NCBI GenBank assembly: GCA_036867785.1
Contig: CP145423.1
Coordinates: forward strand, 372,001-436,000
Length of the DNA stretch: 64,000 bases
Direction of reading: 5' to 3'
Source of the DNA: Plasmodiophora brassicae
Taxonomy: Eukaryota
Shown here: piece by piece, positions 39,501-62,910 of the stretch
Layout: each line of letters starts with the position of its first letter
Position numbering within the stretch: the first letter of the stretch is position 1
Program-made: the position numbers and the translations under genes
The notes under the pieces: model-generated
Told to the model about the DNA's origin: nothing
Databases searched by the model: none
The model's input: the letters and a program-made list of their open reading frames with translations, nothing else

Positions 39501-42500
39501 GAGTCCGGCGATGATGACGTCGCATCCATGATGGCACGTTGCACTTCATTGAGAATGCCGCGGATCCTTTCGGGCGTGATCATCAGCTCACCAATCGCGA
39601 TGACGTCGTCCTGGATTTCTGGGGCACCATAGTGTTGAATAGCACAAAAAGCTATCGCAGCTAGGCCATTCTCATTGTCGATGGCCTCAAGAGCGGTCTT
39701 CATGTCAGCGCGGATCTAGCACCAAAGTCAGATGTCGGGATGGGATATCACAGCGTTCGAGTTACGCACCAAAGCACGAAGGCTTGAAATGGTGGCCGAG
39801 ACCGCGGTCAGCGACTCGGGGAACTGTCGCAGCCCTCGAATGCATGAGACCACAGCATTGTACTGCTGCGTACCATTCGTGTTTGCGTTTAGGTCCAGCT
39901 GGTACTTTAACGCTGCCGCCCAGCTCGCTAGGCTCTCTGCAGTGCATTGCGTTACCATCGCGAAAACCTGGGATAGGCGCATAACTGACCAACCTGCGTT
40001 GGCCAGAGTGCCTTGCTGTGCGAGGACTTCCTCGAGTTTGTCGGCGAGGGTAGGATCCCATCGCACGATTTCGACGAGTAACGGGTGGACGAACGACGCC
40101 GAAGCCGGATTCGTGCTAAGGGTTTGCAGGAGGAAGGGCAGCAGCCCTTCGCGGACGTTGAGCCGATCGATGACACCCGGGACGGGAAGTAAAGCCGTAA
40201 TGAGGTCAGCGGCTTCTCTCCCGACGCTCACTTCATTTGGAAGGCGGGCCCACGCCGACAGGCATGCTTCGACAGCTCCGCATGCCACGAGGCTCTAAGC
40301 CAGCAAGCGTTAACTCTGCACGGTGACAGTCGAGATGGTCGGTGCACCTCGACATGGTGCTTGTTCTTGGATAGCTGGACAAGGCACCGAAGCAGGTACT
40401 GGATCTGTGCCGAGAACTTATTCGTGCGGTTCAGCTCGGACACCAGTTGCAAGATTGTGCTCGAATCCCGTCCGACCGCAGCGGTGCACGGTTTTCCTCG
40501 GCCCATCAACTTCGACAGCCTGAACAAGTCGGCGATCCGTCACGACCACATGCGCTTACATCACCGTAATGGAACTCACACGGCAGCAGCGTCTGATTGT
40601 ACCGGAATGGCACTGTTGATCGCTGCCAGGCCATCGTTGCGGAACACGACACCGGCATCAGGAGCAAACTCAACGATGCGATCTAAGAACGCAACCGATT
40701 CGTTCGTGCCCTGAATCGCTTGTCGAAGCAGATCGTAGTCAGGTCTGCGTCATGGTTTAAGTCAAACATCATGTGCAAATCCTCGAGGACGGCGACGCAC
40801 CGCCTCGTGATAATGCCTGCGAAATGCTCATTTGCTATCATGCCGACCAAGACGCGGATCAAAGCGCTCTTCTGCGTCGGAGATGATTTTCCGGACAGAA
40901 TTGCGTCGATGATGATGTCGGCGCCACCGCATTCGAAAATGGCTTGAACGTTACGCGTGCTGGCCTGCCACATTACATGTTAGAAGCCGTCGAATAACAC
41001 TGACACGCTCGGGTAGACCTTGATAAAGAATTGCAACTTCTCGGCCGAATGTGGCAGTTCAATTTTCTGCAAGGCGTACCGGATCTGCATGCGATAATCT
41101 GCAGACAGACCGGTTGGGTTATGGGAGCGCCTCACAAAGACACGCCGCACCGACCTGTTTTGGCAATGTACGCGGCGCAGGCCGCATGCAGGACCACGAT
41201 CGCCTCGCGTAATGTCTTCACAAACCGTCTTGTGTTCCGGCCGCGAACGTGTGCCTGAATATGGGTGGCAGCATGTGCCTACACATACCAATTTATCAGC
41301 GAGACATGAAGCAGTAAGAACATTTATCGTCTCCAAACCTTTGTCTCGAATCGGCGACGTTCCAGGCTTTCGAAGGCGTCGGCCTTGATGAAGATCTTGG
41401 AGGCGCCCAGGGCGATACCACTCGATTCTTCCGGCTTCAACTGCTCGAGGAGAATTTCCAGGTTCGGTTTCTTCCCGCGCAGATGCAATGGCATAACACA
41501 CCAGTACCGCTCCAAGAACGTATCTGTTATCCGCATCCTCACTTTCCGACAAACGTACACCAGGTATCACACCAACCTGCTGTTCGACGTTGGGCGTATC
41601 CTTCTCTCCGGATCCGGATCGTCTCCAGCGCCCCAATGTATCTGGGAGGTTGGTGATGTTAGGGCGAAATCCGAGCTCGACGTCTGTCCAGAGGTACCGA
41701 AGCTGGCGATTGACGAGTGGCGCGTCGAACACGTCCGGACGGCAGGCGTCGTTTGACTTGATACATCGGATGAAGTTGGATTGGGTGGTAGCGAGTTTGT
41801 CGCAGAGGTTGACCAGAGAGGTGCGGAACTCGAGAGCCACCGTCGACTTTGTCGCCGTCTTCAGCCGTTTGCCATCCTCGACAACAGCGTCAGCCTCGAT
41901 CGCCGACGCGAATATTGTCTTGAGGAAGTCGTTGTATGAGTTCGCGATCAAGCGCAGCAAGTCTTTCGAAAATCGCTCGCGGTTCTTGGACAGGAAGCCA
42001 GAAACTTCGTACTTCACTTTGCCTGAAGCGCACGTTCACCATCGGGAATGGCAAATCCGAAGAAACAATACCGACCTGCATAGTGCTTGATGTGGAATGC
42101 CGAACCTTTGAAGCGGTCAGGTTCGAGGTATGTCGAATTCGCATGCGTTGTGACGATCTTCTGCAAAAGGGTCTGGTCGGTTCCCTTCGGGAAATGCGCC
42201 TCTTCATTGATGAGGAAGAGTATCCCAACAGGCGGCTATGACGTCGAGTCAAACAGCCGATCCAAGCAAGCGCTAAACGGTAGGCGTGGCGTACGAGATC
42301 AACAAGATCGATGCAACCCTGGTTGTCGGTGAAGGCGACGTGTTCGACTTGAATGCCTTCGGCGGCGTATTCGCGTTGCTCCAACCGAAACACGTACTCA
42401 TTGAACTGTAGTTGCAAACGTTCGTTTGCATAATTGATACACAGCTGCTCGAACGAGTTTCTGGTGAAAATTTCAAAGCCGAACACGTCCAACAGCAGGA

Positions 42501-44347
42501 CGCGGCCGCCATCTGAATTCGTTGGCGTTGTCATCTAATAGGGTTGGCCTAATAAGTTCGTTGGTGCATAACGATGTCCGGTCGTACTTACCGAAACGTT
42601 CAGTTTGTCGACGATCCAGTGGAATACTTTAGCATACAGATGCTGGGCTAGAGTATCGCAGGTATCGACCGACTGGAACTGGTCCAGTGGGACGAAAAAT
42701 GTTTCACCTGGTGACCATCAACCGTATCAGCGTTTGCCGTCTATTTGATGCGCACGAACGCACCTTTGATTACGTTGGTTCGTGAGGTCAGGGTCGTTGC
42801 CAAGCCGGCGGGATCGCATCCCAACAGGTATGCCGCCCAGTTGAGGACTTTGGCATAGACAGTCAATCGAATGCCATCGGCAAGGTTCGCCAAAGCAGGC
42901 TTACCATCGGTATTCTCAACGGCGGAAGATTCCGCTTTGCTGAAGGAGAGGTTCCCTAGCCACAGGATCGCAGCCAGAATGTTGAACACGTTGGCCTGAT
43001 CGGCGGCATTGAACCCGGCCACTGTCATCGATGCCTACACATACTACGAGTCACAAACACATCAGGCCGTTGCGATACGCGCTGAAGACAACCTTCAGCT
43101 TCGCCAGTTCGACCGCGGCGTCTTCACCAGAGATTTCAACGCCCACCGTGTTTTTCAAGTACCTGTAATCGGCCGGTCCTCCCAGCTGCCACATCTCTGT
43201 GTTCCATGTTCAGGCTCCATTTACGTCGGCTCCCATCTGGTGTTGACATACGCCGTTCCGATGGGTCGACGGTCGCCAGCAGGTAGTAGAACGAATGGAA
43301 ATTGCGTTCATCCGGGTTCTGCTTCGTCACACGAAGCTTCTCGAGCAGATCTGTTCGGTTGGTTCAGCGACGCAACCTTTGTCGTTGGACGAAACCTACA
43401 CGTTTCGAACAGCGCGCCGGACACGAATCCATCCCCTTGCAATTGTATCTCCAGGAGCTTCCCGAATCGGCTGGAGTTATTGTTGCGGATGGTCTTCGCG
43501 TTGCCGAACGCTTCCAGGATTGGATTTGTAGCTAGAATCCGCTCGTGGACGGGAAACGACGCTTGAACCATTCCTGGCTTTTGGGCACCAGTCTTAGACG
43601 CCACCTCTGCGATGTACTGGAGAACGATTTTGGCGGCTTCGGTCTTGCCAGCCCCACTCTCGCCACTGATCGCGGTTGTCAACCAAAAGGCGATTACGAA
43701 CATGAAATCCACCGACCTGATAACGATCGACTGGTCACCATCGCCGCGTAACAGGGCACGATAGACGGCATCGGCAGTGGCATAAATGTGTGGCGCATGA
43801 TCGTGCATGTTGGATTCTCTGTAGAGATTGACGGCCTCGGGAGTGTAAAGGTCAATGGGTTTGAACGGGTTCACCGACACTAGGATGCCCCCCATGTATG
43901 TGTAGATGATGTCCTGTTCGAACCGCAAACGCAGATTGTACAGGATCGACGCCGTATGCAACGACTCCATCTCGATCATGTCGTGGTAACCTGTTCACGA
44001 ATTAACGCGTTGACGAGCGTCGGTCTCGACGGGCCCAGTACCGAATTCCGGGTAGGACGGCACGTTTAGACAATCACTGATGGGGAAGATCGATTCCGGA
44101 TGGCCTTCGACGCCGTCTCCGACGACCACCATGTTATCAATCGTCCTCACAATATTCATCTGGAACGGGTCGGTATCGTTCGTGGGGAAACGGCAGCCAC
44201 CTCACCTCCCGGTAGACGAGTTCGGGGTCGGGGACGTAGATCGACCCGACATCCAGCGACATCATCAGCGTCTTCGCCTGGTCGGCACCGACCTTGCCGG
44301 CGCCGTCGCCGTCGGCTTTCGCATCGCCGACGACGTCGATATCCATG
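33580..44347 (-). CDS. Large multi-exon unconventional myosin: motor + IQ + long ARM-like tail + C-terminal PH-like domain
   Basis: [68 protein letters not shown]-like exons continue without an intergenic gap to a PH-like end (YLVWQD..RAWIKSL). The motor call is near certain; single-gene continuity is less so. Confidence 0.8.
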
Positions 44348-44522
44348 ATCGCCTTTATCACTGCGCCGTACGACGCGATCGCCCGCTAATATCTCCTCCG
44401 TCATCAGCATCATCGTCACCAACTCATCATTAAAAGGCGGAACTTGTCGCCCCCCTGTAACCGCGGAATGTGTAGAAGACGCGGCCGCACTCCTCCACGG
44501 CAGTCCCGGCAACGTTACAGGC

Positions 44523-47270
44523 ATGCGGTCGACTGGGGCCATTGCAGTTCGTTTTCGTCATTGTCGTCGGCGGTTGCTATCGGCGGCGGCGGCAGGTGAG
44601 GAGGCGGCGGTCGACAACGCGGCGCTGCTCGACAAGTTCCTGCTGGCGCCCGGCGTGCGAACCGCGATCCGGATCCTGAGGCAGGATAGCGATGCGGACC
44701 GGGGCTGGACCGTGTTCCAGTACGTGCTGGACCGGCTGCGACCGAGGATCCCGTTCTTCCAGGTGATGATGATGTTCTGCAGGCAGCACGCGCCGGCGAA
44801 AGCGCCTGATGTGATGCGCGCTGCGCTGACGCATTCGATCGTGCCGAACGATACCCTGTTCTGCACCATGATCGCTGCGTGCCAGACCGTGCAGCCGCCG
44901 TTGATGGACGAGGTCCGCGATCTCTATCACCGGTGTGGACCGCGTTCCATGAACGTCATATTCGCTGTTGCAAATCTGTGCCGACGGGCAAAGCACCCGG
45001 AGGCGGCGCTGTCTCTTGTATCGGACGCTGCCAAGGGCGGCGTTATCTTCGAAGAGAGGCTCGTAACCCTGCTCTCTGCGTGCTGTGCTGAGGCGAACTG
45101 CCCAGCGGCCGCCGATACGGCGGAACAACTTCTCGCCTTGATCGGATCCGGGCGTATTCGTGCGTATCCGCATCAACCTGCAAATTACGGCAATCTGGTC
45201 AAGGCGTTGATCAACGACGGCAGGATACAGAAAGCGGTGGACACCCTTGAACTGATGAAGAGCATTGGCGTCCAACCGTCGCACCGAATCTACACTCATG
45301 TGCTGTCGGCGTTGTCCAAGCCTGATACTATCCTGCAGGCCATGAGGATGTTCCACATCATGGTTGAAAGCGGTTTTCCTGCCGAGGGTCGCGTGCTGGC
45401 CACGCTTATCTCCGCCTGTGGTCGCGCGAAAGAGCGCCCAGCTTTGCACAGGCTGCATCGCTATGCTGGCGACCAGGACCTCCTGCTGAACGACTACGTC
45501 GTCAGTGGGCTCGTTTCAGCGTTCGCTCAGTGCAATGAGCTCAGCCGAGCAGAATCAATCTTCCAGCGACGCTGTGATGCTTCTACCCCGGACTCTGCCA
45601 TGTTCAACGCGATGATATCGGCATACGTCCATCATAACCAACTTGCCAATGCGATCACGGTTTTCGAAAAGTTACAAGGCGAGGGGCTGTCTGCACCGGC
45701 GACCACGTACACGACCATGATGTACGCGTACGTGAACGAGAATCGGACTTCGGGCGCGATGCAACTGTTTCGTTCGATGATCGACCAAGGCATTCCTGTC
45801 GATACGCCTGCTCTTCGATCACTGATCGCTGCCTGTGGGCGTTGCTCCGACCTCGATGCGGTGCGCGCTCTTCACGAATACGCGTCCAGTCGGACGTCCC
45901 TGGTGGCCGACGTTATCGTGAGTTCGCTTGTGTCAGCGTACGCCGGATGTGGCGAGCTCGGCGCCGCCGAGCGACTGTTTCGAGACAAATGCGAGTTCAA
46001 AGCCGTGTCCACGCTGACGTTCAACGCCATCATCGAGGCGTACGCGAAGAAAAATCGCCTTCGCGACGCGATGGACGTGGTCCAGGTTGCTGTGAAACGT
46101 AATGCTCGCTTATTGGGACATGCGTTCCTATCGTTGGTATCTGCGAGCGATCACTGCTGCGATTTTTCTGCATTGACGGCTCTGTACCAGCACGCACGCG
46201 TTCGTGATCGATCGTTGCTGGTTGATGATGCTGTCACCAGTGCGTTTATTTCCGCTTATGGTCGCGTATGCCACCTTGATGTCTGCGAAGATATTTTCCG
46301 CAGCGTTCAGGTCGCCGTTCCTTCTGGGACTCAACTCCCACAAACGCTCTCTGCGGTCATGCGAGTGTATTCCGACTATGCAATGCTGCCTGTCACTGTG
46401 AAAATCTTCGAGCAGTACAAGGCTGCTGGTCTGCGCCCAACCAAATCTATACTTCGATCTCTGCTGGCTGCCTGCTGTCGCGTTGGCGACATGGACCACG
46501 CGAATATGTTCGCCAAGGAGTTTGCAGACACTTGGCATGTGCCGCTTGATTCGACTCACCAGAAATTCTTGATCGATCTGCACGGACGGTCTGGCAATTT
46601 AGAGGCCGCCGTGTCGATCGCTGCTGACAGCAACGATATTGTCTGTTGGTTGGCTGTCCTGCGCGCCTGCCACAACTTCAAGGACGTCCCACGTGCTAAA
46701 GACGCGCTGGCGAGAATCCTATCACTGCCTTACGTCTCCTCGCACGACTTGACGAACGCGTACCTGTTAGTGTCTTACGTGCTGGCGGACACTGGCCTGT
46801 CTGCAGAGGCGGATGCCGTGGTTGACGAGATGAAGCGCAGAGGCTTGTCGGCGAAGCGTCCCAGTAGGACATCTGTCATCCTATCGGATCGCAGCGTGCA
46901 CTTTCAGTCGGATGACCAGCAATTCTACTCCGATGGGAAACTGATCGACCTGCATTGTGACCTCGTTCAGCGTCTCGAAAGGGCAGGCTACGAGCCAAGC
47001 ATGGCCGTAGTCAGGAATGCGGCGGCCGTCGGCGAGCGCTGTGCCAGACACAGTGTGCTGCTTCACAGCGAGAAGATTGCAATTGCATACGCGCTGAAAG
47101 ACACGGAGCTTCTTCCCGGTCCGATTCGGCTTGTCAAGAACGCGCCCATGTGTCCAGACTGTCATGACTTCGCGAAGCGGGTGTCGTACGTGCTCGAGAA
47201 GCCCGTTCTTGTCCGCGATAGCTTACGACAGCACGCCTTTCAAGGCGGTGCTTGCTCATGTGGCGCTTAA
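44523..47270 (+). CDS. PPR protein with C-terminal DYW-type cytidine-deaminase domain, probable mitochondrial presequence
   Basis: Intronless 915 aa; many PPR motifs (FNAMISAYVHHNQLANAITVFEKL); AGYEP, HSEKIAIAYAL, IRLVKN..CPDCHDFAK, VRD..HAFQGGACSC. Confidence 0.93.
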   Translation: MRSTGAIAVRFRHCRRRLLSAAAAGEEAAVDNAALLDKFLLAPGVRTAIRILRQDSDADRGWTVFQYVLDRLRPRIPFFQVMMMFCRQHAPAKAPDVMRAALTHSIVPNDTLFCTMIAACQTVQPPLMDEVRDLYHRCGPRSMNVIFAVANLCRRAKHPEAALSLVSDAAKGGVIFEERLVTLLSACCAEANCPAAADTAEQLLALIGSGRIRAYPHQPANYGNLVKALINDGRIQKAVDTLELMKSIGVQPSHRIYTHVLSALSKPDTILQAMRMFHIMVESGFPAEGRVLATLISACGRAKERPALHRLHRYAGDQDLLLNDYVVSGLVSAFAQCNELSRAESIFQRRCDASTPDSAMFNAMISAYVHHNQLANAITVFEKLQGEGLSAPATTYTTMMYAYVNENRTSGAMQLFRSMIDQGIPVDTPALRSLIAACGRCSDLDAVRALHEYASSRTSLVADVIVSSLVSAYAGCGELGAAERLFRDKCEFKAVSTLTFNAIIEAYAKKNRLRDAMDVVQVAVKRNARLLGHAFLSLVSASDHCCDFSALTALYQHARVRDRSLLVDDAVTSAFISAYGRVCHLDVCEDIFRSVQVAVPSGTQLPQTLSAVMRVYSDYAMLPVTVKIFEQYKAAGLRPTKSILRSLLAACCRVGDMDHANMFAKEFADTWHVPLDSTHQKFLIDLHGRSGNLEAAVSIAADSNDIVCWLAVLRACHNFKDVPRAKDALARILSLPYVSSHDLTNAYLLVSYVLADTGLSAEADAVVDEMKRRGLSAKRPSRTSVILSDRSVHFQSDDQQFYSDGKLIDLHCDLVQRLERAGYEPSMAVVRNAAAVGERCARHSVLLHSEKIAIAYALKDTELLPGPIRLVKNAPMCPDCHDFAKRVSYVLEKPVLVRDSLRQHAFQGGACSCGA

Positions 47271-47319
47271 TATTACATAGTGTGTTAATGATTCCGACGT
47301 CTTTATACGATTCATTGCT

Positions 47320-47997
47320 CTAGGGTGCAGGTTCAGTCTGTTGAGGATGCGGTTGGCAGTACAGCAGGCCCGACGTCGAATGGGCCAAGCGCTGCGAGAT
47401 AATGGCGCTGTTGTCATACGCCCAGAGCATGAACCTGGCTTGTTGCTCGGCTTTGACGAGCTGACGTACGTCTTCGATCGATGATCGCATACGCTCCCCA
47501 TGCAGATGAAACAGGTCTTTCGCCTCGAGTAAGGCCTGGCGTGCAGAGCGGATCTCCTCTAGGCACTCAGCGTTGTCCAGGACAGTACCGTTTAGTTGCA
47601 GGGTCGCCAGCAGACAGCCGATGTGATGATCTACTGCGTTCTGCACACCATGGCCGACGACTGATGACCCGGTTAGTAACTGGACAATGAGCTTGCGGAT
47701 GGATGACGTCTTGGATTTGCTGGGACGCTCCTGAAGCGCTTCAGTCAGCTCGTCGACGACGAGCTTATCCAACGACGGCGACTCGCGACCGTTATTCGGC
47801 CAACTCATCGCTCTCAGCAACCTATTCTCTAACCGCAACCGGCTGATCTTCAGCTCCATCCGATGCCGATCCACCTTGGCCCGCTTGCGCGCCAGGACCG
47901 AACTGCGCCGGTTCCGTTCCCGACGCGACAGCATTGACATCGACGACGCCGTCCCATCGGATCCCCAGTCAACTGCCGGGTCGTCTGGATGCGTCAT
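47320..47997 (-). CDS. bZIP transcription factor (may contain in-frame introns)
   Basis: Basic region RRERNRRSSVLARKRAK followed by the heptad MELKISRLRLENRLLR. Confidence 0.8.
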   Translation of the reverse strand: MTHPDDPAVDWGSDGTASSMSMLSRRERNRRSSVLARKRAKVDRHRMELKISRLRLENRLLRAMSWPNNGRESPSLDKLVVDELTEALQERPSKSKTSSIRKLIVQLLTGSSVVGHGVQNAVDHHIGCLLATLQLNGTVLDNAECLEEIRSARQALLEAKDLFHLHGERMRSSIEDVRQLVKAEQQARFMLWAYDNSAIISQRLAHSTSGLLYCQPHPQQTEPAP

Positions 47998-48046
47998 CTG
48001 GTGCTATACCATCCGGACACGACCCTCCTGGGTGATCGACACAGAC

Positions 48047-48086
48047 GACCCCCCGAGCACGTGATCGGTCACGTGCTCGGGGGGTC
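48047..48086. promoter_or_regulatory. Perfect 18-bp inverted repeat with two CACGTG boxes upstream of the bZIP gene
   Basis: gaccccccgagcacgtga-tcgg-tcacgtgctcggggggtc. The structure is certain; the regulatory role is inferred. Confidence 0.55.
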
Positions 48087-48490
48087 ATTACTGCACAGAC
48101 GTGTCCAGTAAGGCGAAAACCCTGTCTCACGGTCGTTGCTGAAGATCTCGACTCCCGCTGTACATCATGGGAGTTGGTTGACCCCAGGGTTTCAGTTCAC
48201 CTACAGCGGCCTCATCAGCGCGATATCGTTGCAGTCCAAATTTACGTCCTGCAAGCGGTCGTCAAGCGACGAACCCGTGCAGTCGTGCTGCCTGCGCATC
48301 GTCCAATTCATTTCCCTTGCGTGCCAGCGTGCGTGCTTCGTGGTTCTAAAAATGGCAACTGCGTAGCCTGGCCTGGGCAGATTATTTTTGAGGCGTGTCC
48401 ACTCGTCAGCTCAGCCACAAGTCAGATCGCGCAGCGTGGCGGTTGTGCTCGTAGGCGGGGCAGGGGCGGCGCCGACCACTGCGTGCGGCG

Positions 48491-51400
48491 ATGCGGTCGA
48501 CGCGATCGAGTCCATCGCGCCTGCTGCCGTCCGGGCATCTGCCGATCGGGGCTGAGGCGTTCGAGCTGGACGACCAGAGCAGTGGGTCGGATATCGGCGC
48601 GAACGTGCATCCGGATCGCGTGCCGCTTCTCCAGGGCACGATCGACAAGGTGCGTCTGCTACTGTCAAACGTCTGGCAGGTCAGCGGACCTGCTTTTCAT
48701 GTGCGAATTTGTTGAATCCGCTTATCGACCGCTGCTGCGTAGGCGTCGACGAACTGGTGGTGCTTCCGGAAAGATTCGCCCAGTGCACGATCGTTGATAT
48801 TCTGCGGGAACGGCTGCGCCTATACGCAGCCGGCACTATCGTTCCCACCCAATCGCGTTCGCAACCAGAAGTATTCCCTGATCTCGTTTCTGCCCCTGGT
48901 TCTGTACGACCAGTTCCGGTTCTTCTTCAACCTCTACTTCCTCATCGTCGCTATCAGCCAGTTCATCCCGGAACTGCAAGTTGGCGTTCTGTTCACCTAC
49001 GTTGCTCCCCTTGTGTTCGTCCTGACCGTTACCATATCGAAAGAGGTATCGTCACCGTTGGCTTGCGTCCATTAGGGGCTTCACCTGACGTGACATTCTC
49101 ACAGGCATATGATGACTTTCAACGATATCGCCGTGACAAAGAGGCAAACTCTGCGATGTACGAAGTTATTGAGAATGGGATTATCAAATCGGTTTGTGAT
49201 GCGCGCCTCGTACGTGTATCCACCGAATCTGATCGTCTTCGATAGGTCCCCTCATCCAGCTTGCGAGTAGGCGACCTTGTAATCGTGCACAAAGATGAGC
49301 GCGTTCCTGCCGATATGGTCTTGCTAAAGACCAGGGAGGAGAATGGCGAAATATTTATTCGGACGGACCAGCTTGATGGAGAAACCGATTGGAAGTTGCG
49401 CCATGCTGTCCATTCGACCCAGCAACAGTTTGCATGGGAGGACGTGTACAAATTGCAGGGACGAATGGAAGTTGAGGCTCCTCGTAAAGCAATCTACGAC
49501 TTCGTGGGAGCGTTCACTACAAACCGCGATTCACCGTCTGCATCGTCGCACGAACGCAATCCTGATGATGCGAACCCTGCTGTCGAGGGCCTTGACCTCG
49601 AACACACCGTATGGGCGAACACCGTTATAGCAACTGGGTCAGGTTAGTTGTTTGTCAACCAGCTTGCTAGCGTTTTGTCTAAGTGCTAATGTGCGAACGC
49701 GTTCATTGCAGTGGTTGGGTGTGTTATTTATACCGGAGACGAGACACGTTCGGTTATGAATGCGAACACTCCTGCGACAAAGATGGGCTTGGTCGACCTT
49801 GAACTGAACTCGATATCGAAGCTCTTGTTTGCCATGACTGTTCTTCTAGCGTTCGTAATGGTTGCAATGAAAGGTACGTGCCAAGCCAGTTGTTGTGATT
49901 GGTGTCCTGAGGTTGAGCTAGGACTGTATGGGCAATGGCCCCTCTTATTCTTCCGATTCCTGCTTCTTTTTTCGGCCATCATCCCGATATCACTGCGCGT
50001 CAACCTTGATATGGCGAAGACTTTATATTCATTCCAGATCATGAGGGGTAACGCGCTGTATATGAAAGAAAAGACGCCGCAGTCCAGACTTACCGTTTGA
50101 ACAGATCCAAAGATTGAAATGACCATCGTACGAACGTCGACAATTCCCGAGGAACTTGGACGGATATCTTATTTGTTCTCGGATAAGACGGGAACGTTGA
50201 CCCAGAACGGTGGCGTGCAGTTCGTGCATTTGCCCATTCGCACTCGCTCACTAACGTCCGGATGTAGTAATGATATTCAAAAAGCTTCAGTTACGCCCGC
50301 CTATGGCGCACCATCCGGAAACCCTTTCAGCAACACGAGAATCACTCAAGCGATCATTTGAAATGGACGATCTTGGGGCGATGTTAGATGAGGTGCGTTG
50401 CATTGCCTGAAAACACGCTAGCAATCTTATGTAGCGTTTTCCAGGTTTCCAGGTACGAAAGGCGTAAACGGGCCGATGCCGACTCTGCTCTCCAATCCTG
50501 CGTAATGGCGATTGCACTCTGCCACAACGTTACTCCAGTTGTCGATATGGACACCGGAAATCGCACACTTCAAGCGTCTTCACCAGACGAGGTCTGGATG
50601 TTGTTAGCGTAGGTGTCTATTGGTCGTTTACATCATCTGTCTCCTAGGTCGCGCTTGTCCGCTTTGTTGAGTCGGTCGATGTCATCCTGGAGTCCAGATC
50701 GCCTCGTCAGATAACATTGCGGCTTCCGAACGGCGATCTCAGCGAATACGAAGTCCTTAACATTTTCCCTTTCACTTCGGAAACGAAACGGATGGGAATC
50801 GTCGTCCGATGTTTGGTTTCTGGTGTCATTCGATTCTATCTGAAGGGCGCTGAGGTATGGCCTTGTATTCACTTCGTGTTTCGGACAGGGCTCATATTTG
50901 ATTGCCATCCAGTCCGTTATGAGAACGCGTGTCGAACAGACGGACTGGCTGGATGAAGAAGTCGAGCAGCTCGCACGTGAAGGATTGCGAACCCTTGTCT
51001 TCGGCGGCAAGGAACTCCCTGCTGCTGAATATGAATCGTGGTCGCAAAAGTACGCTGTTGCTCGCAGCCAGCTTCAAGGACGGGATGCTGCCGTGCGTGC
51101 CGTTGTAGAACTGCTTGAGGTCAACCTGTCACTTCTAGGCGTTACAGGAGTCGAGGATAAACTCCAACCAGGCAAGTTGACTAATGCACGCTTGTTGCGC
51201 GCGCCTAAACGTGTGCGGTGCAGGAGTTAAAACGGCGCTCGAGACGTTGCGGAACGCAGGCATTAGGGTTTGGATGCTGACTGGCGACAAGGCTGAGACC
51301 GCGGAATGTATCGGCAGGTCGGCTCGTCTCGTTGATAGGAACCAGCAGGTCCGTACCGAATGCAAGGTCCATTGTTGCCCATTGCCTCAGCCTGAACGTA

Positions 51401-56091: not shown

Positions 56092-56984
56092 CTAACTGAC
56101 ATTAACAACAACCTGCATTGTCAACTCTGTAAACCCCACTGTGGGAATTGGCTCGCTGGGCATGTAACCGCAACGTTCGCGCATTCTGCAATATCTCAAT
56201 CTTTCGACGTAGGAGTCCCATGGACTCCTCCTGCTTTTTGTCTTAGGCCTGCCTGGCCAGGTCAAAGTTTAATCGCAGCTTTGTACCGAATGCCCACACC
56301 GTTCGCCGATGTGCTCAACATGGTCGTCGATCTGGAGACGCGCCTCGCGCGGTAGTCAGCTTCATGGTGATCGTCCATTACACGTGATCAACACCCGGTC
56401 GCACGCGTGCCCACCTTGCCGGTCGTCTTGGCGACCACGTCCTGCATTGCTTCGAGACTTACTGCCGGAACAATGCCGACCAGCCTCCGATACCCGTTCT
56501 TCCTTGGGCGATCTCACGCCTGAACACCTGACCGGCCAGGCACAGCTCCTCATGCTTGGCCGCGATCCGTCTTTGGTTCGCGCGTTTGCCGAACTAGGCG
56601 TACATGGTTGACGACATGTGACTCTCGGGCGCGCAATGGACGATCGCATTCTGCAGGCCTATACGCCCGTTCGTACCCGATTACGTCGATGTATCGACCA
56701 TATGGCGAGAGTCGCCCGTCAGGTTCGGGAGTTTGTGTCAACACAGTCACGTTTGTCAGTGGGGTGGCGGTCCAGCGAGACCGTTTGACGTTTATGGGAA
56801 ATGGCTCGTACGCGCTGGCTGGGAGGTCGATGCCATTGCACCTTCGACAGCGCCAGGACGACTAGAAAGGACAGTGTGCACATTGCCGCTGAAACACAGA
56901 ATGGACTCGCAGGGTCGTCGAACACACGACACCAAGCGGGGCTGCAGGAACACATATTGGAAGCTGTTTACCGTTCGTAAGGCG

Positions 56985-58467
56985 TTACTGAATGCGTCGT
57001 CCCGGCGGCCGCATCACTGTTGACGAATTGACGACCGGGTGCGTTCGACATGGACGAACGGGCCGGAACATGACGACGCGGAACGCGCTGTCGAGGGCGC
57101 GCCCTGTGAGGAACATGGCCCAGGACAGGGTCCACCCGGCCGGGCTCCACAGGAACGAATGCGAGATGCTCATCAGGGCGAACGCAGTGGACACCATCAG
57201 CATCGACGAGCCGAGGCCCAGCGTGCATCGCGACAGCCGCTGCTGGATGTCTTTGGATGAGGCGGGCCGCTCCGGTTCGTTGTTGAGCCGGGCCGCCAGG
57301 TAGTAGAAACGCAGGGCGCTGACGACGAGGTGCGTGCCGGTGACGATCTGCAGAACGAGGAGGACGCCGGCGGCCACCGTCTGGAACGTGAAATTGTCGT
57401 CGCCCATCGACAGCATCGTCGACAGGACCGTGTCGATGACGACGGCCACGGCGCAGAGGAAGGCGACCAGCGACGGGTACTCGCCGCAGAGCGCCCGGGT
57501 CGCCCAGGACGGCGACGAGCGCAGCGAGACGTGCAGGAAGGTCCTGTTCCAGGTGATGGCCGACATGGTCGAGCAGACGAACCCCCAACCCGTCAGGCAC
57601 GTCGTGAAGAAGTACTGGACGGGGCCGGCCACGTTCGACGTCGAATACCACCCGCCGGCGCAGACGATGCCGCCGACCAGCGTCGCTGTGACCGACTCGA
57701 CGAACAGCGTCGCCACCGGGTAGTCGACGCGTTGCAGGAGGAACCCGACCCGGCGCCGGACCCCTCGGGAACCCCATGGGACGGCCGCCTCGTACTCCGC
57801 TTGGGCAATCGCCAGGTGCCCGTGCAGGAACACGACCGCCGACACGCCCGTGACGACCAGGATCGCCCCGGGAATGCCTCGGACGAACACCTGGTAGTAC
57901 CAGGACGCGAACACGTCCACCCAGACGTTCGCGTCCGGCGACGCCGTCGCTGTGGCGTTCGCCGACCGGATCAGGTCGGCGTAGACAGGTTCGGCCATGC
58001 CGACCTCCAGGAACAGGCCGCCCTGTGGGTGCGCCGCGTTCAGGAACAGGTTCGTCTGCGTGCCCGGGACGCCATGCGCGCGTATTCCTGTCAGGCAGGG
58101 TCAGCGCGGACGCAGGGAGGCACACACCGGCGACGTCGACCGTACGCAGGACAGCGGAGGCGCCACCCTTGACGATGTTGAGGTAGGCGTGCGACATCAG
58201 GCAGAAGCCGTAGCCGTTGGCGCCAAGGACGACGATCTTGCCGGTGAACTCGTCCCGGGCGCTCAGGCCCGGGTCGCAATAGTCGCCGGTGACGAACGCC
58301 AGCCGCCCTGACACCGTCGCCGACGCCGGGTCACCCGGTTGCGGCCCCAGGAACCTGTTCACCGGCGGGCTGTAGAACGTCAGGTTGCGGTCGCCGACCT
58401 GAACCGTGACGGACGCATGGGCGAACGTTGCCCCGAGGCACCACCACAGCGGGACCCAGCGCCGCAT
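56985..58467 (-). CDS. Signal peptide + PA-like ectodomain + multi-pass (GPCR-like) membrane protein, 2 exons
   Basis: MRRWVPLWWCLGATFAHA; GDYCDP..FTGKIVVL..GGASAVL; intron ~58126-58088 joins to the 56985-57998 frame with about 7 TMs. Confidence 0.75.
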
Positions 58468-58735
58468 CACGAAACTGGCCAAGGTACGGGTGACGATCAT
58501 GGGCAGGTCACGAGGACACATGTGGAGGAGATATGTCGGGCCAGCATCGTCGTGCGTTCGCTGATTCCCAAAGACGTCATCTTCAAGGAGGCGTGTGCCA
58601 GTGCTGGAGTGAACAGGTCCCTGACCGCTGTTATGTGAATGCAGATGACGAAACCATCGTGAGTCATGTCGCAGGCAGTGATTCACTGCTGGCCGGATCC
58701 GGTGGCGATCAAACGCCAAGAAATACGTCCGGACC

Positions 58736-59248
58736 ATGTCGTCGTCGTTCCTGATCGTTGTGCTCGTTGCTTCTCTGATGTCCGCCTCGTGTGTGGTAAA
58801 TTCGCAAGCGGTACAGGAGGAACAGGTTGGGACACCGGCGCCGGTGCAGAACGCGCCCATCAGGCAGACCGCCCAGCAGCAGCAGAGTACGGCCAGCCTG
58901 GGCCAGAGGCGGAACTCGCAGACGCACACGACCAGCGTGCTGACGCAGAACAAACAGGTCCAGGCCGAGAATTCCAACGACACAGCCGCCCAGCGACAAG
59001 AGCAGCAGGCCGCCCAACAGCAGGCGGTCGCCCAGGCCAAACAGAAGCGGAGCGATATCCTGGCGACGACGCAAACGATCAAGGCCCAGAGCCCACAGCG
59101 CCCAGGTGGCCAGCTGACACGTCCGGCACCAGCGCCAACGACGCAACCAATGGTCAACATAACGACCGCGCAGACGATTCGAACGCGGGCGGACACCCTT
59201 CGCAAGCGAATGCAATCGCCAATGACATCGTCAATGTTCTGGAAATAA
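58736..59248 (+). CDS. Secreted Gln/Thr-rich protein
   Basis: Signal MSSSFLIVVLVASLMSASC followed by a Q-rich body. Confidence 0.7.
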   Translation: MSSSFLIVVLVASLMSASCVVNSQAVQEEQVGTPAPVQNAPIRQTAQQQQSTASLGQRRNSQTHTTSVLTQNKQVQAENSNDTAAQRQEQQAAQQQAVAQAKQKRSDILATTQTIKAQSPQRPGGQLTRPAPAPTTQPMVNITTAQTIRTRADTLRKRMQSPMTSSMFWK

Positions 59249-59309
59249 ACACACCGACGGGATCAACTGGAGTAGTATAATCAAATACGCTAACCGGAGG
59301 GCGTACGCG

Positions 59310-61943
59310 CTATGAGATCGGCGGTGCCGAATGCAGACGAACGCCCTTCTCGCCCATGAGCGTAACGAGCTCGAGCAGCGCGATCGACGACAGGTGCTGG
59401 CTGCTGCCGGGAGCGGCCAGCATGGGCGGGATCGTATCAATCCAGATCGTACGCGACCACGGGCAATGTGCAAACGCGCGGTACAGAACCTTCTTCGCAG
59501 ACAGCACGTCGCCTCGCACCAACTCGAACGCGATATCTGCCAGAAACAGGTACCGTGTTAGTGCATGCAGGCCCACAGGGACAGGAATCGCCGACGTACA
59601 TATTCGCCATAGAAGGACAATGCCTCGACCGGGTCCGGACAGGCCCTGCTCGAGAAGTCGGTGGACACGCGCCGCCGCCCCCGCTGATGGACGGGCGATC
59701 TCGAACGCGATCGCGTACAGGAGAACGCGAACGGGGCCGTCGTAGAGCCCATCGCCCGCCATCCGAGCAATGTGCGTGTCGAACACGCCCCGCATGACGT
59801 TCGTCTGGGGGACGCAGCTGGCCAGCGCCTGCCAGAGCGTTTGCGACAGCGGGCAGGCCGCGAGGGCCCGATCCAGTACGGGACGGAGAGTTCGCGGAGG
59901 GGCCTTGATAGACGTCAGGAGCCGGACAATGCATGCCCAGGCATACTCCCGCTGTGGGCCACCAGGCGGCGGGAGGATCGGTTCCAGAACGCCGGTGATC
60001 CAGGCGACCATGTCGTCGACGCTGTTCGCGCAGATGGCCTCCAGGTGCATGGCGCCGAGCGAAACGCTCAGACCCGGACTGCACGGGTAGATCGAGGCCA
60101 CAGGACGATGCCACCACCCGGAGTCGTCGCCGAGTCGTCCCATGAGCTTGGTGAACTCCTTCCGAGCCCGGGCGAGTTGGACGGAGGTGACGTCGCCCGA
60201 TGACGGCGGGGGCGCGTACCGGCCGTCGGCGATGCAACACAGAAGATGACGAGGGTCGCCGGAACGCGCGATCTGATGTTCCGCAGCAGCCCAGGCAAGC
60301 GAATACGTGGAGAACGTCCATGGGCTGTCCGACATTTGTAGCAGGACGGCGCTGTACACGGCGTCGGCTCCAGACGGATTCGCCAGCCCTTGCAGGTCGG
60401 CCAGCGCCTTGCACAGCTCGACGCTGTCTCGGTTGGCCTTCAGCAACTGCTTCGCAGACCGGGCAGCGGCCTTGACACCGCGCTCGGCGCATTCAATCGC
60501 GAGCCGAGTGATGCGAAGCGCATCGCTGATGTCGCCGGGCAGCCCGACAGACAAGACGGCGTCGATTGCAGATAAAGCAAAGGCGCACCTTGCAGAACGC
60601 GAACTGGATGGTACGGGATCGTTGCGGAACCCCTCGGGAGCGGTAGACCCGGTGGAACGGTCGAAGACGGGGCGCTCAGTGTCGAACAGCTGTCGGAAAT
60701 CGCAGAGCCGGAAATCGTCGCTTCGAGGAACGATACGGGACCGAGTCAGCAGCCGCTCGTCGATCCCGACCGCCAGCAGCAGCTCATCGACGAGGTGGAC
60801 GGCGCATTCGACCGGCGGGCAGTCGAACAGGACGAAGCGGAGGTCGTCAAAGACGACAATGCGGTCCAGCATGGACTCGTCGTCGGTGTCGGCGTGGCGG
60901 ACCGGGAGCCACCGTTCCGTTCCGAGCCGGGATTCCACCTCAAACCATTCGGCGAGCGTAGACGATGCCGACGGCAACCGCGCGCCGTCGTCAGCGACGC
61001 TGTCGGCGTTGTCCGCCTGCGATTCGAACCATCGGGACCACGTCGGCGCATTCGGTTCGCCGACTCGAGGGACCTCGCTTTCCCAGAACCGTTCGAACGC
61101 GTCGGTGCGGTCGCGAAGGGGCGCGCTTCGAAGCGGCGCGGGGCAGAACAGACTGAACTCGATGGCGGCCTGGCAGAACGCGGTCGAGCGCTCCGTGTAC
61201 CCAGCGCCCCGTTCGACCCATGTCCACAGCGACAGCAGGTGCAGCATGGGCGCATGGTCGGCGAGGCGCTCGAGGAGGCCGGCCAGGTATTCCCTCAGGC
61301 CGTTCATCGTGAACGTCGAGAACGACCCGATCATCGAACGAACGTGCTGCTCCTGGAGCAGCGCGGACGGCGCCGCCTGCAGCGCCTCCTGCCAGACCCG
61401 GTCGACATCGCCGCCCGGCAGGTGCTGAGCGCTCGAGCGAATCAGCGCCAGCCAGAGGACGTCGGACGCGGGATTGGCGCGAACCGCTTCCGTCAGGATC
61501 GACGTCTTCTTCTCCACCCGTGCGGCTCGCGTGCAACCGGTCACGGCGTCTTGGAGTTTCACCAGCTCCCACCACGCGCCAATGTTGTCCGGTTCGCGAC
61601 GAAGCGTCGCGTTCAGCTCACGCGATTTCTCCATCCAATCCCGTTCTTCGTCGTCGACGCCATCGTCGTCGTCGTGATCCGCCCCCGCAACCGGAATGAA
61701 ATCGTCCCTGCCGGCATCGACCGGGCGCCGGCGCCGCTTGCCGACGCTCTTCGGCAGCGCCGTGAAGTACCGGCGCAGCGGCGCGGCGTCGTCCCGCGCG
61801 CCGACCCGTCCACCACGATCGGCACGTGCGCCGCCCCGATACCGGGCGTGCACCGTGTACGCCGGCGTCGACGCGCGATCCGACTGCTGGAGCTCGGCAT
61901 TTTCCGGGTCGCCGCGCACGTCGACGATGAAGGCGTCCGCCAT
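59310..61943 (-). CDS. NRDE2: NRDE2-like HAT-repeat nuclear RNA factor
   Basis: DVRGDPENA; ELNATLRREPDNIGAWWELVKLQD; GYTERSTAFCQAAIEF; FERFWESEVPRVGEPNAPTW; LYRAFAHCPWSRTIW; LMGEKGVRL. Confidence 0.9.
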   Translation of the reverse strand: MADAFIVDVRGDPENAELQQSDRASTPAYTVHARYRGGARADRGGRVGARDDAAPLRRYFTALPKSVGKRRRRPVDAGRDDFIPVAGADHDDDDGVDDEERDWMEKSRELNATLRREPDNIGAWWELVKLQDAVTGCTRAARVEKKTSILTEAVRANPASDVLWLALIRSSAQHLPGGDVDRVWQEALQAAPSALLQEQHVRSMIGSFSTFTMNGLREYLAGLLERLADHAPMLHLLSLWTWVERGAGYTERSTAFCQAAIEFSLFCPAPLRSAPLRDRTDAFERFWESEVPRVGEPNAPTWSRWFESQADNADSVADDGARLPSASSTLAEWFEVESRLGTERWLPVRHADTDDESMLDRIVVFDDLRFVLFDCPPVECAVHLVDELLLAVGIDERLLTRSRIVPRSDDFRLCDFRQLFDTERPVFDRSTGSTAPEGFRNDPVPSSSRSARCAFALSAIDAVLSVGLPGDISDALRITRLAIECAERGVKAAARSAKQLLKANRDSVELCKALADLQGLANPSGADAVYSAVLLQMSDSPWTFSTYSLAWAAAEHQIARSGDPRHLLCCIADGRYAPPPSSGDVTSVQLARARKEFTKLMGRLGDDSGWWHRPVASIYPCSPGLSVSLGAMHLEAICANSVDDMVAWITGVLEPILPPPGGPQREYAWACIVRLLTSIKAPPRTLRPVLDRALAACPLSQTLWQALASCVPQTNVMRGVFDTHIARMAGDGLYDGPVRVLLYAIAFEIARPSAGAAARVHRLLEQGLSGPGRGIVLLWRICTSAIPVPVGLHALTRYLFLADIAFELVRGDVLSAKKVLYRAFAHCPWSRTIWIDTIPPMLAAPGSSQHLSSIALLELVTLMGEKGVRLHSAPPIS

Positions 61944-62019
61944 CGACGCCCGCCGCGACTGCGCGGAGCTGCAGCAACGATGTCCGAACGACAGGTCAAC
62001 GGTCGCCGTTGTGTGGGTT

Positions 62020-62910
62020 TTAGGTCACCCGTTTCTTCATTTTGTATTGGGGATGTGATTGCGAACGTTCGCGCCCGTGCTGGAGGACCGCGTCGACGAC
62101 GAGGTCGGCGCCCTCGACCCAATATAATAGTTTGGCGTACCACGGGACATCGTGCAGGCCTCTGGAGATCGGGTACTCGTTCTGGATGATGACCCAGGTG
62201 AGGCCGTAGATGGCGGCCGTCATCAGCGACAGCATGAAGGCGAGTACGACGTCGACCGTGTAGTGCAGACGGGTGGCGACGAAGAAGACGACGCAGACGA
62301 GCAGGACGACGGTGCCGGTGACCTTGATGGACCAGTGGACGCGGTCGTGCGTGATCCACACGGCCCAGAGCGAGACGACGGTGGCGGTGTGCCCCGAGAA
62401 GATCATATCGGTGCAGGCGCCGTCCATCGACGCCACCATCCGCATCGCCGCGATAATCATCGACCCCCTCTGGATGTACCGCAGGTCGCATTTCGGGTCG
62501 GACGGCGGCAAACGGGTGCCCAACAGCGTCAACGTCCTCATGACGTACAGCGCGATCTGGAGAACCGAGAACCGTCTCACCAATCGCAAGCGGTCGGCCG
62601 GGTCAACCATGGCGGAGATCGCCGTCGTCATGGCCAGCAGCAGCCAGAGCGGGGCATCCGCGAAACTGACCGGCAGCTCGGTCGGCAGCGACGCGTGGCC
62701 CAGGTCGTGCAGCGGACGTCGATACGGCGTCTGCGTGTCCCGCGACTGTACATACGCGAGGAAGTCGGCGTCGGAATCGACCTGGACCAAGGCCATGACA
62801 AAGACGACAACGACGGTGACGGCGAACAGCGCCAGGGTGCGCAGGCTCCGCGATCTGATCGGGAGCGACGCCGTCGCGCGCAACGATTCGCGCGTCGTAC
62901 CGGGCGCCAT
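62020..62910 (-). CDS. Sphingomyelin/IPC synthase family (PAP2_C); start may be upstream
   Basis: PLHDLGH, CTDMIFSGHT and RLHYTVDVVLA catalytic motifs. Confidence 0.9.
   Translation of the reverse strand: MAPGTTRESLRATASLPIRSRSLRTLALFAVTVVVVFVMALVQVDSDADFLAYVQSRDTQTPYRRPLHDLGHASLPTELPVSFADAPLWLLLAMTTAISAMVDPADRLRLVRRFSVLQIALYVMRTLTLLGTRLPPSDPKCDLRYIQRGSMIIAAMRMVASMDGACTDMIFSGHTATVVSLWAVWITHDRVHWSIKVTGTVVLLVCVVFFVATRLHYTVDVVLAFMLSLMTAAIYGLTWVIIQNEYPISRGLHDVPWYAKLLYWVEGADLVVDAVLQHGRERSQSHPQYKMKKRVT

Follow-up and report, generated by a model that had tools for sequence, protein, structure and literature searches.

A plant-type PPR-DYW gene in Plasmodiophora brassicae

We analysed a 64,000-nucleotide stretch of Plasmodiophora brassicae DNA (assembly GCA_036867785.1, contig CP145423.1, positions 372,001 to 436,000 of the forward strand; called the window here, with positions counted from its first letter), which carries a gene for a plant-type protein composed of a pentatricopeptide repeat (PPR) array and a DYW deaminase domain. 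Its architecture, its predicted fold, its intact active site, its presequence-like N-terminus and its expression make it very likely that the product binds RNA sequence-specifically, probably in the mitochondrion, and the evidence leans slightly towards its converting cytidine to uridine (C-to-U editing), perhaps weakly or with the aid of a partner. A preliminary description of the window, made from its letters, had reported a PPR-DYW open reading frame (ORF) and a plant-type identity in a protist. The ORF was confirmed at 44523..47270 on the plus strand with every motif quoted for it, and the identity is fully supported by Pfam, by the alignment to the solved structure 9kfx and by the predicted fold. 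The gene and the parts of its product are as follows:

44523..47270 (+), PPR-DYW coding sequence, 915 amino acids, a single exon including the TAA stop codon (uninterrupted ORF)
44523..44597 (+), residues 1-25, putative mitochondrial presequence (6 Arg, no Asp or Glu, net charge +6)
44655..45176 (+), residues 45-218, N-terminal module of five degenerate PPR-like helical hairpins (AlphaFold2 helices)
45177..46637 (+), residues 219-705, 14 PPR motifs in the order P-P-L-S-P-P-L-S-P-L-S-P2-L2-S2 (AlphaFold2 helices and HMMER register to 9kfx)
46638..46859 (+), residues 706-779, E1 and E2 motifs (alignment to 9kfx E1-E2)
46860..47267 (+), residues 780-915, DYW cytidine-deaminase domain lacking the D-Y-W tripeptide (Pfam PF14432, fold model)
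47064..47072 (+), H848-S-E850, catalytic zinc ligand and proton-shuttle glutamate (alignment)
47151..47165 (+), C877-P-D-C-H881, two catalytic zinc ligands and the first His of the second zinc site (alignment; ligand roles from PMC7611903)
47253..47270 (+), C911-S-C913-G-A-stop, CxC of the second zinc site, then an early end replacing xDYW (sequence)

The best database match of the 915-residue protein was PBRA_006760, a hypothetical protein of P. brassicae with 916 amino acids, at 97% identity over the full length. The next-best matches were P. brassicae paralogues at 35-39% identity, and named plant proteins reached only 20-25%.

The DYW domain keeps both zinc sites

The Pfam model DYW_deaminase (PF14432) matched residues 822-914 with an E-value of 3.1e-18 and a score of 65.8 bits against a cut-off of 24. 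The match covers profile positions 1-90 of 93, and it stops at position 90 because the protein ends in CSCGA, without the D-Y-W tripeptide. The catalytic signature HxE(x)nCxxC is intact (H848-S-E850 and C877-P-D-C880), and the second zinc site is complete, in such a way that H881, H904, C911 and C913 align with H924, H947, C954 and C956 of OTP86, the two His and the CxC that hold the second zinc in that protein (PMC7611903). The HSE, CPDC, CH, H.F (H904-A-F) and CSC motifs listed in the preliminary description were all found.

A model of the domain by itself (AlphaFold2, residues 770-915, alignment of 38 rows) had a predicted local distance difference test score (pLDDT) of 93.2. In Foldseek it superposed on 9kfx_A with a TMq of 0.84 and a root-mean-square deviation of 1.8 Å over 139 columns, followed by the DYW domain of OTP86 (7o4e/7o4f, TMq about 0.70) and by DYW1 (7w86, 0.66). 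A search of the ESM Atlas with the DYW part returned generic streptophyte DYW clusters only.

The PPR array follows the plant PLS layout

The array was recognised by the Pfam models PPR (PF01535, E 9.7e-35) and PPR_2 (PF13041, E 4.8e-34), and by further PPR models too. In the full-length AlphaFold2 model, obtained with a 17-sequence family alignment and with a mean pLDDT of 84, the helices form 21 hairpins (five degenerate ones, 14 PPR motifs, E1 and E2), and the whole layout reads as the five-hairpin module, the 14 motifs in the order listed above, E1, E2 and DYW. The best solved relative detected by HMMER was 9kfx, a synthetic plant consensus PPR-DYW protein bound to RNA, with an E-value of 1.8e-59. 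The register of this alignment places residues 394-519 on P1-L1-S1 and residues 626-705 on P2-L2-S2 (motif numbering of 9kfx as in PMC13324415), and residues 626-914 align as one stretch to P2-L2-S2-E1-E2-DYW with an i-Evalue of 5.5e-32. The same structure was the top Foldseek match of the full-length model (E 1.3e-23). The Pfam model E_motif (PF20431) had no match in the 915-residue protein at E <= 0.1, and it is annotated in the paralogues P0003 and P0006 (handles of this form denote the homologous proteins collected here). The S-like motifs have 34-37 amino acids in this protein, against 31 in plant S motifs (PMC13324415).

N-terminus and N-terminal module

The protein begins with MRSTGAIAVRFRHCRRRLLS, as quoted in the preliminary description, where it was called Arg-rich and acid-free; the count of six Arg and zero Asp or Glu in residues 1-25 bears this out. 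The most amphipathic 11-residue stretch near the N-terminus lies at the 91st percentile of the protein, and residues 1-30 were modelled by AlphaFold2 as disordered, with pLDDT below 50. The N-termini of 11 family members were examined, and in the nine with a complete N-terminus the first 14-71 amino acids are acid-free with a net charge of +3 to +13; P0004 and P0008 are without such a presequence-like N-terminus. P. brassicae is not known to have a plastid, which would leave the mitochondrion as its sole genome-bearing organelle. Both the N-terminus and the organism fit a mitochondrial location, as predicted from the sequence.

Between the presequence-like stretch and the PPR motifs stands the five-hairpin module. 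A phmmer search with residues 36-215 detected 40 of 172 proteins at E <= 2.8e-21, with the next match at 1.7e-7, and because of this gap the module can be taken as the mark of a distinct family. In the ESM Atlas the module found generic PPR clusters only.

The gene is transcribed as a single exon

The PPR-DYW stretch is contained in 19 sequencing runs from 7 studies, none of them recorded as RNA. Contigs of four runs from four studies (X1, X3, X8 and X10) were aligned to positions 41000-49000 of the window. In all four runs, at least 14 segments of 49-60 nucleotides are skipped between 41098 and 44040, with CT..AC ends that correspond to GT..AG on the minus strand, and a further GT..AG segment is skipped at 48677-48741. 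Since the window DNA itself holds the skipped segments, these contigs represent spliced RNA. The PPR-DYW gene is covered end to end in the four runs, with no joint and with no differing letter, by contigs extending over 44486-47294 (X10, 2809 nucleotides), 44581-47338 (X8, 2759 nucleotides), 44206-47433 (X1) and 44206-47298 (X3). As the RNA contigs span the gene without a joint, it is transcribed and consists of a single exon. The transcript can be delimited approximately:

44486..47338 (+), transcript, approximate extent (union of the X10 and X8 contigs, which carry the PPR-DYW gene alone)

In X1 and X3, one RNA contig spans both the PPR-DYW gene and the neighbouring myosin gene. Another observation concerns positions 44766-44806, where a further contig of X1, X3 and X10 matches over only 40 nucleotides, 90-95% alike, with unlike sequence on both sides; this contig is probably the transcript of a paralogue sharing the conserved N-terminal module.

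The protein belongs to an expanded and distinct family

An exhaustive HMMER search with residues 770-915 against 1.84 billion representatives yielded 1534 proteins at E <= 1e-3 and 351 at E <= 1e-10, with only one protein, the orthologue, at E <= 1e-30. A homologue search with the DYW region alone recovered the orthologue only (1 of 211 candidates), and a profile search with 33 family members gained one extra protein. P. brassicae is the sole organism name attached to family members, and its members form at least nine clusters, at least five of which have a DYW match in Pfam (P0002, P0003, P0007, P0008 and P0009); these counts are lower bounds, since no more than about 8000 candidates were scored in the word-index searches. 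A public database already lists one of the paralogues as "DYW domain-containing protein [Plasmodiophora brassicae]". Two paralogues, P0003 and P0008, are canonical, ending in CSCGDYW and with HSE..CxDCH intact. Where the DYW domain is missing from a family member, the C-terminus lies at varying positions and carries an unrelated tail; such members may be truncated gene models or genuine E-type proteins.

For a tree of the DYW domain, 131 domain-spanning rows were kept of 161 DYW-matching proteins, and 30 partial ones were dropped. Both a quick tree and a careful IQ-TREE run (149 columns, LG+G4) were made. The tree is split into 37 and 94 rows, and the family side comprises 33 rows bearing the module plus four short fragments without an N-terminus. 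Support for this branch was 99 by the Shimodaira-Hasegawa-like approximate likelihood ratio test (SH-aLRT) in the quick tree, and 100 by ultrafast bootstrap (UFBoot) with SH-aLRT 99 in the IQ-TREE run, whose bootstrap had not settled; the branch has a length of around 0.5 changes per column. The window protein has both marks of the family, the five-hairpin module and a DYW domain that groups with the family in the tree. Its nearest relative in the tree is P0031 (support 100/83), which keeps a CSCGDYW end, and therefore the tail was lost after the split from P0031.

In the DYW domain, the window protein is 40-49% identical to most family members and about 28-45% identical to other proteins; these values, together with the length of the family branch, argue that the gene is not a recent copy from a Brassica host. 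Outside the family, the nearest relatives among the named matches and in the ESM Atlas are streptophyte DYW proteins. The suggestion that the gene was horizontally acquired or retroposed found no direct support. The content of guanine plus cytosine (GC) near the gene is 0.595, within a range of 0.53-0.67 across the window, so there is no compositional anomaly; the DYW domain sits in a deep and diversified family of its own; and no poly-A remnant was found 3' of the PPR-DYW stop codon, which means that a recent retroposition is not indicated.

Divergence between two strains

Relative to its orthologue in strain e3, the 915-residue window protein carries 22 substitutions and a single indel. The substitutions are clustered, in such a way that eight of the 22 fall within the 74 residues of E1-E2 (46638-46859; Fisher p 1.6e-4) and three in L2 (46443-46550), and only one change was found in the 136 residues of the DYW domain. 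Both this domain and the N-terminal module hardly vary from one strain to the other. The E1-E2 region of plant proteins lines the RNA tunnel and touches target nucleotides -3 to +2 (PMC13324415), and its excess of changes here may reflect relaxed or diversifying selection. The truncated C-terminal end is the same in both strains and is thus not a recent lesion. A protein divergence of 2.5% looks high for two isolates of one species.

Proposed function and alternatives

According to the model that we propose, the product of this nuclear gene, a PLS-class PPR-DYW protein, would be imported into the mitochondrion, where its 14 PPR motifs together with E1-E2 would bind one mitochondrial transcript strand in a sequence-specific manner. 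A cytidine a few nucleotides downstream would then be placed in the zinc-dependent site of the DYW deaminase and converted to uridine. In this model we infer import into the mitochondrion and the binding of RNA and, most of all, C-to-U editing, whether in the organism or by this protein. The case for editing rests on what such proteins are known to do in plants, on the occurrence of PPR-DYW proteins alongside mitochondrial C-to-U editing in Naegleria, Acrasis and the paradinids, and on the canonical paralogues that the same genome encodes.

Several observations weigh against editing by this protein. Its terminus reads ...GGACSCGA and is followed by TAA, so the D-Y-W tripeptide is lost. In 139 of the 161 DYW-matching proteins, CxC is followed by exactly four residues, with W as the last of them in 135, and in only four proteins by two residues (the window protein, the e3 orthologue, P0043 and P0016, all of one family); paralogues end in CSCGDYW or similar. 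Plant DYW domains owe stability to the D and W residues, and replacing either with alanine is reported to lower editing substantially (PMC13324415). The PG box, defined as PGxSWIEVxGxxHxF at the start of the DYW domain (PMC4202320), is degenerate, RPSRTSVILSDRSVHFQ, with Gly changed to Ser and SWIEV to TSVIL; the stretch reads KRPSRTSVIL here and KVPGQTSLLL in a paralogue, and its beta-hairpin is still predicted (E782-786 and E791-795, AlphaFold2). The missing tripeptide and the degenerate PG box make this particular protein less likely to be an autonomous deaminase, and for the same reasons it may deaminate weakly or work together with a canonical paralogue. Regarding recognition, only about three of the 14 pairs of fifth and last residues match the canonical plant PPR code (T/D, N/N and perhaps S/D), and because most pairs are non-canonical, no RNA target is predictable by the code.

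Further points of this kind come from the family, from the mitochondrial genome and from other protists. The HxE(x)nCxxC signature is not intact in 12 of the 34 DYW-bearing family members (P0004, P0007, P0013, P0016, P0027, P0034, P0041, P0045, P0047, P0052, P0083 and P0099), the window protein being among the 22 with an intact one. In eight of the 12 the Glu is replaced (by V, D, V, P, P, C, T and T), in three Cys or His ligands are lost, and one is ambiguous. It follows that non-catalytic roles clearly exist in the family. In most of the 12 the Glu is changed and the remaining domain is in place, usually with its DYW tail, which suggests pseudo-deaminases that are still under constraint. In the available text of the paper on the P. 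brassicae mitochondrial DNA, which has mapped transcriptome data, RNA editing is not mentioned save in a cited title (PMC6823432). The nine non-ATG starts described for this genome (TTA/TTG, ATC/ATT and GTG; PMC6823432) are not of the ACG type repairable by C-to-U editing. Naegleria and Acrasis have 11-12 DYW proteins against only two known editing sites each (PMC4202320).

A possible, if doubtful, alternative is a non-catalytic mitochondrial RNA-binding factor, acting in group II intron splicing, end processing or stabilisation, in which the DYW domain would be a structural or docking module. In its favour, 54 introns with unusual splice boundaries have been reported for the P. brassicae mitochondrial genome (PMC6823432), and for the surplus DYW proteins of Acrasis other roles such as cleavage or splicing have been suggested (PMC4202320). 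The lost tripeptide and the degenerate PG box agree with this alternative, as do the 12 of 34 members that lost the catalytic signature yet keep the domain. However, the window protein keeps all the zinc ligands and the catalytic Glu, which many of its relatives do not, and no part of it differs less between the strains than the DYW domain (1 change in 136 residues), as expected if the active site is still used.

We regard it as unlikely that P. brassicae, and with it probably other phytomyxids, has a plant-like mitochondrial C-to-U editing system made of its own expanded PPR-DYW family in which labour is divided, with the members that have a canonical DYW domain catalysing the reaction and the tail-less and signature-lacking members mainly recognising the sites and borrowing the deaminase in trans. 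If true, this would be an independent re-invention of the split E+/DYW editosome of flowering plants, in a crop parasite for which mitochondrial RNA editing is not known to have been reported.

Still less probable is that the gene is a decaying paralogue, transcribed but without a selected function. The loss of the tail, a PG box with P-S instead of P-G, and the 22 substitutions and one indel relative to e3, eight of the substitutions in E1-E2, could be seen as signs of decay, but the frame of 915 or 916 codons is open in both strains, the four RNA runs carry the window allele without a difference, almost no change separates the two in the N-terminal module and in the DYW domain, and the truncated end is common to both.

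We also give very little weight to a host-directed effector that would alter RNA editing in the mitochondria or plastids of the host. The construction of the protein resembles that of the editing factors of the host itself, host PLS-class PPR genes are reported to be up at night in clubroot, where a manipulation of host organellar editing has been proposed (PMC13247141), and an Arg-rich presequence could work in plant cells too. Yet no signal peptide is recognisable, the first 25 residues having six Arg and no long hydrophobic core; the nine complete N-termini examined are all presequence-like, as expected for housekeeping import; and nothing in the data indicates secretion.

That plant DNA contaminates the assembly, or that the gene came only very recently from a Brassica host, might be thought from the plant-like architecture and from the fact that the parasite lives inside plant cells, but this is refuted in practice by the GC of 0.595 that matches the 0.53-0.67 of the window, by the spliced myosin gene some 180 bp away and on the same RNA contig in X1 and X3, by nearest named proteins that are P. 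brassicae paralogues (35-39%) and not named plant proteins (20-25%), and by a DYW domain placed in a family split of its own (100/99); the contaminant contig considered in the preliminary description is ruled out as well, spliced eukaryotic genes flanking the PPR-DYW gene.

Genomic context

Pfam was run on 101 of the 102 stop-to-stop ORFs of at least 170 amino acids in the window, the PPR ORF being excluded, and it identified ordinary eukaryotic nuclear genes, with the families F-box, EF-hand, ankyrin, ABC transporter, EGF, C2H2 zinc finger, myosin head, P4-ATPase, SIP1, UAA transporter, NRDE-2 and PAP2. No second PPR-DYW gene was found among these 101 ORFs. On one side, the myosin gene occupies 41098-44346 on the minus strand and, by reading of the sequence, starts around 180 bp upstream of the PPR-DYW start codon, and because the two starts are so close and on opposite strands, both genes may share a bidirectional promoter. 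The other features of the window that concern us are:

47323-48003 (-), 225-residue ORF that converges on the PPR-DYW 3' end, around 50 bp from its stop codon; no Pfam match
59313-62024 (-), NRDE-2 homologue, an uninterrupted frame of 904 amino acids (Pfam E 1.1e-55)
56971-59262 (-), uninterrupted frame of 764 amino acids; no Pfam match

Short separate RNA contigs of X1, X3 and X8 cover the 225-residue ORF. The gene had been described as intronless among intron-rich neighbours, which holds for the myosin gene, with its at least 14 introns of 49-60 nucleotides, and fails as a general rule, the 904-residue NRDE-2 frame being uninterrupted. The 904- and 764-residue frames also mean that long single exons are not unusual in the region.

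Published record and significance

The Phytomyxea are placed in Endomyxa. Also in Endomyxa (Rhizaria), the paradinids of the Ascetosporea were reported in 2025 to have nuclear PPR-DYW proteins together with mitochondrial C-to-U and A-to-I editing (PMC11946409). That paper presents itself as the first report of C-to-U editing in any rhizarian, and it does not mention Plasmodiophora (PMC11946409). A 2026 survey counts 31 DYW domains in Rhizaria (PMC13386178). Rhizarian PPR-DYW proteins are therefore already in print, and the window protein adds to an established kind.

Within the accessible text of the literature on P. brassicae and the mitochondrial genome, the term RNA editing occurs only in reference lists, and the papers that join Plasmodiophora and DYW concern host plants, as judged by their titles. 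Two parasite PPR genes were described as differentially expressed, with no mention of DYW in the part of that paper at hand (PMC8298192). Our literature searches returned no account of a P. brassicae PPR-DYW family, of the N-terminal module, of tail-less or signature-lacking members, or of a test for editing.

If these proteins have activity, a major crop pathogen would not read its mitochondrial genes as they are written in the DNA, with consequences for annotating a mitochondrial genome that has been called hard to annotate (PMC6823432). P. brassicae would then represent, after the paradinids, a second rhizarian lineage with plant-type editing. The natural DYW variants without a tail or without the signature could moreover reveal which parts of the editing machine are dispensable.

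Comparison with known systems

The window protein shares with land-plant PLS-class PPR-DYW proteins (9kfx, OTP86 and DYW1) the order of the motifs, with P-L-S triplets followed by P2-L2-S2, E1, E2 and DYW, the HxE(x)nCxxC signature, the second zinc site (H, H and CxC) and the predicted fold, as well as a nuclear single-exon gene; its N-terminus is presequence-like. In contrast to them, it is without the D-Y-W tripeptide, its PG box reads PS..TSVIL and not PG.SWIE, its S-like motifs are longer, it has the additional five-hairpin module, its code pairs are mostly non-canonical, and its identity to the plant consensus is only 23-32%.

Among protists, PPR-DYW proteins co-occur with mitochondrial C-to-U editing, at two sites in each organism, in Naegleria gruberi and Acrasis kona (PMC4202320). 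The heterolobosean families are likewise non-plant and nuclear, with about a dozen PLS, E and DYW proteins that arose by lineage-specific expansion (PMC4202320), and the DYW domains of the P. brassicae family are similarly diversified on one side of one branch. Editing is demonstrated in heteroloboseans and is a proposed activity in P. brassicae; the PG box, conserved in the 12 Acrasis ORFs (PMC4202320), is degenerate in the window protein.

The paradinid proteins have in common with the window protein the supergroup Rhizaria and the conserved H, E and two C (PMC11946409). Paradinids have one to three PPR-DYW proteins (PMC11946409), and the family described here is larger. Paradinid and fungal PPR-DYW proteins share a deletion of two residues between HxE and CxxC, at alignment positions 43-44 (PMC11946409). 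Compared by description, this deletion is not present in the window protein, where H848 and C877 lie 29 residues apart, compared with 28 for the plant-like P0018 and the paralogue P0003; its absence argues, indirectly, against a common origin with the paradinid and fungal clade.

The PPRD1 protein of diplonemids is a mitochondrial protist deaminase of the DYW family joined to an array of helical repeats (10.64898/2026.09.04.749523). PPRD1 is single-copy and has an atypical PPR array and more than 100 sites in that account, whereas the window protein belongs to an expanded family and carries a plant-like PLS array.

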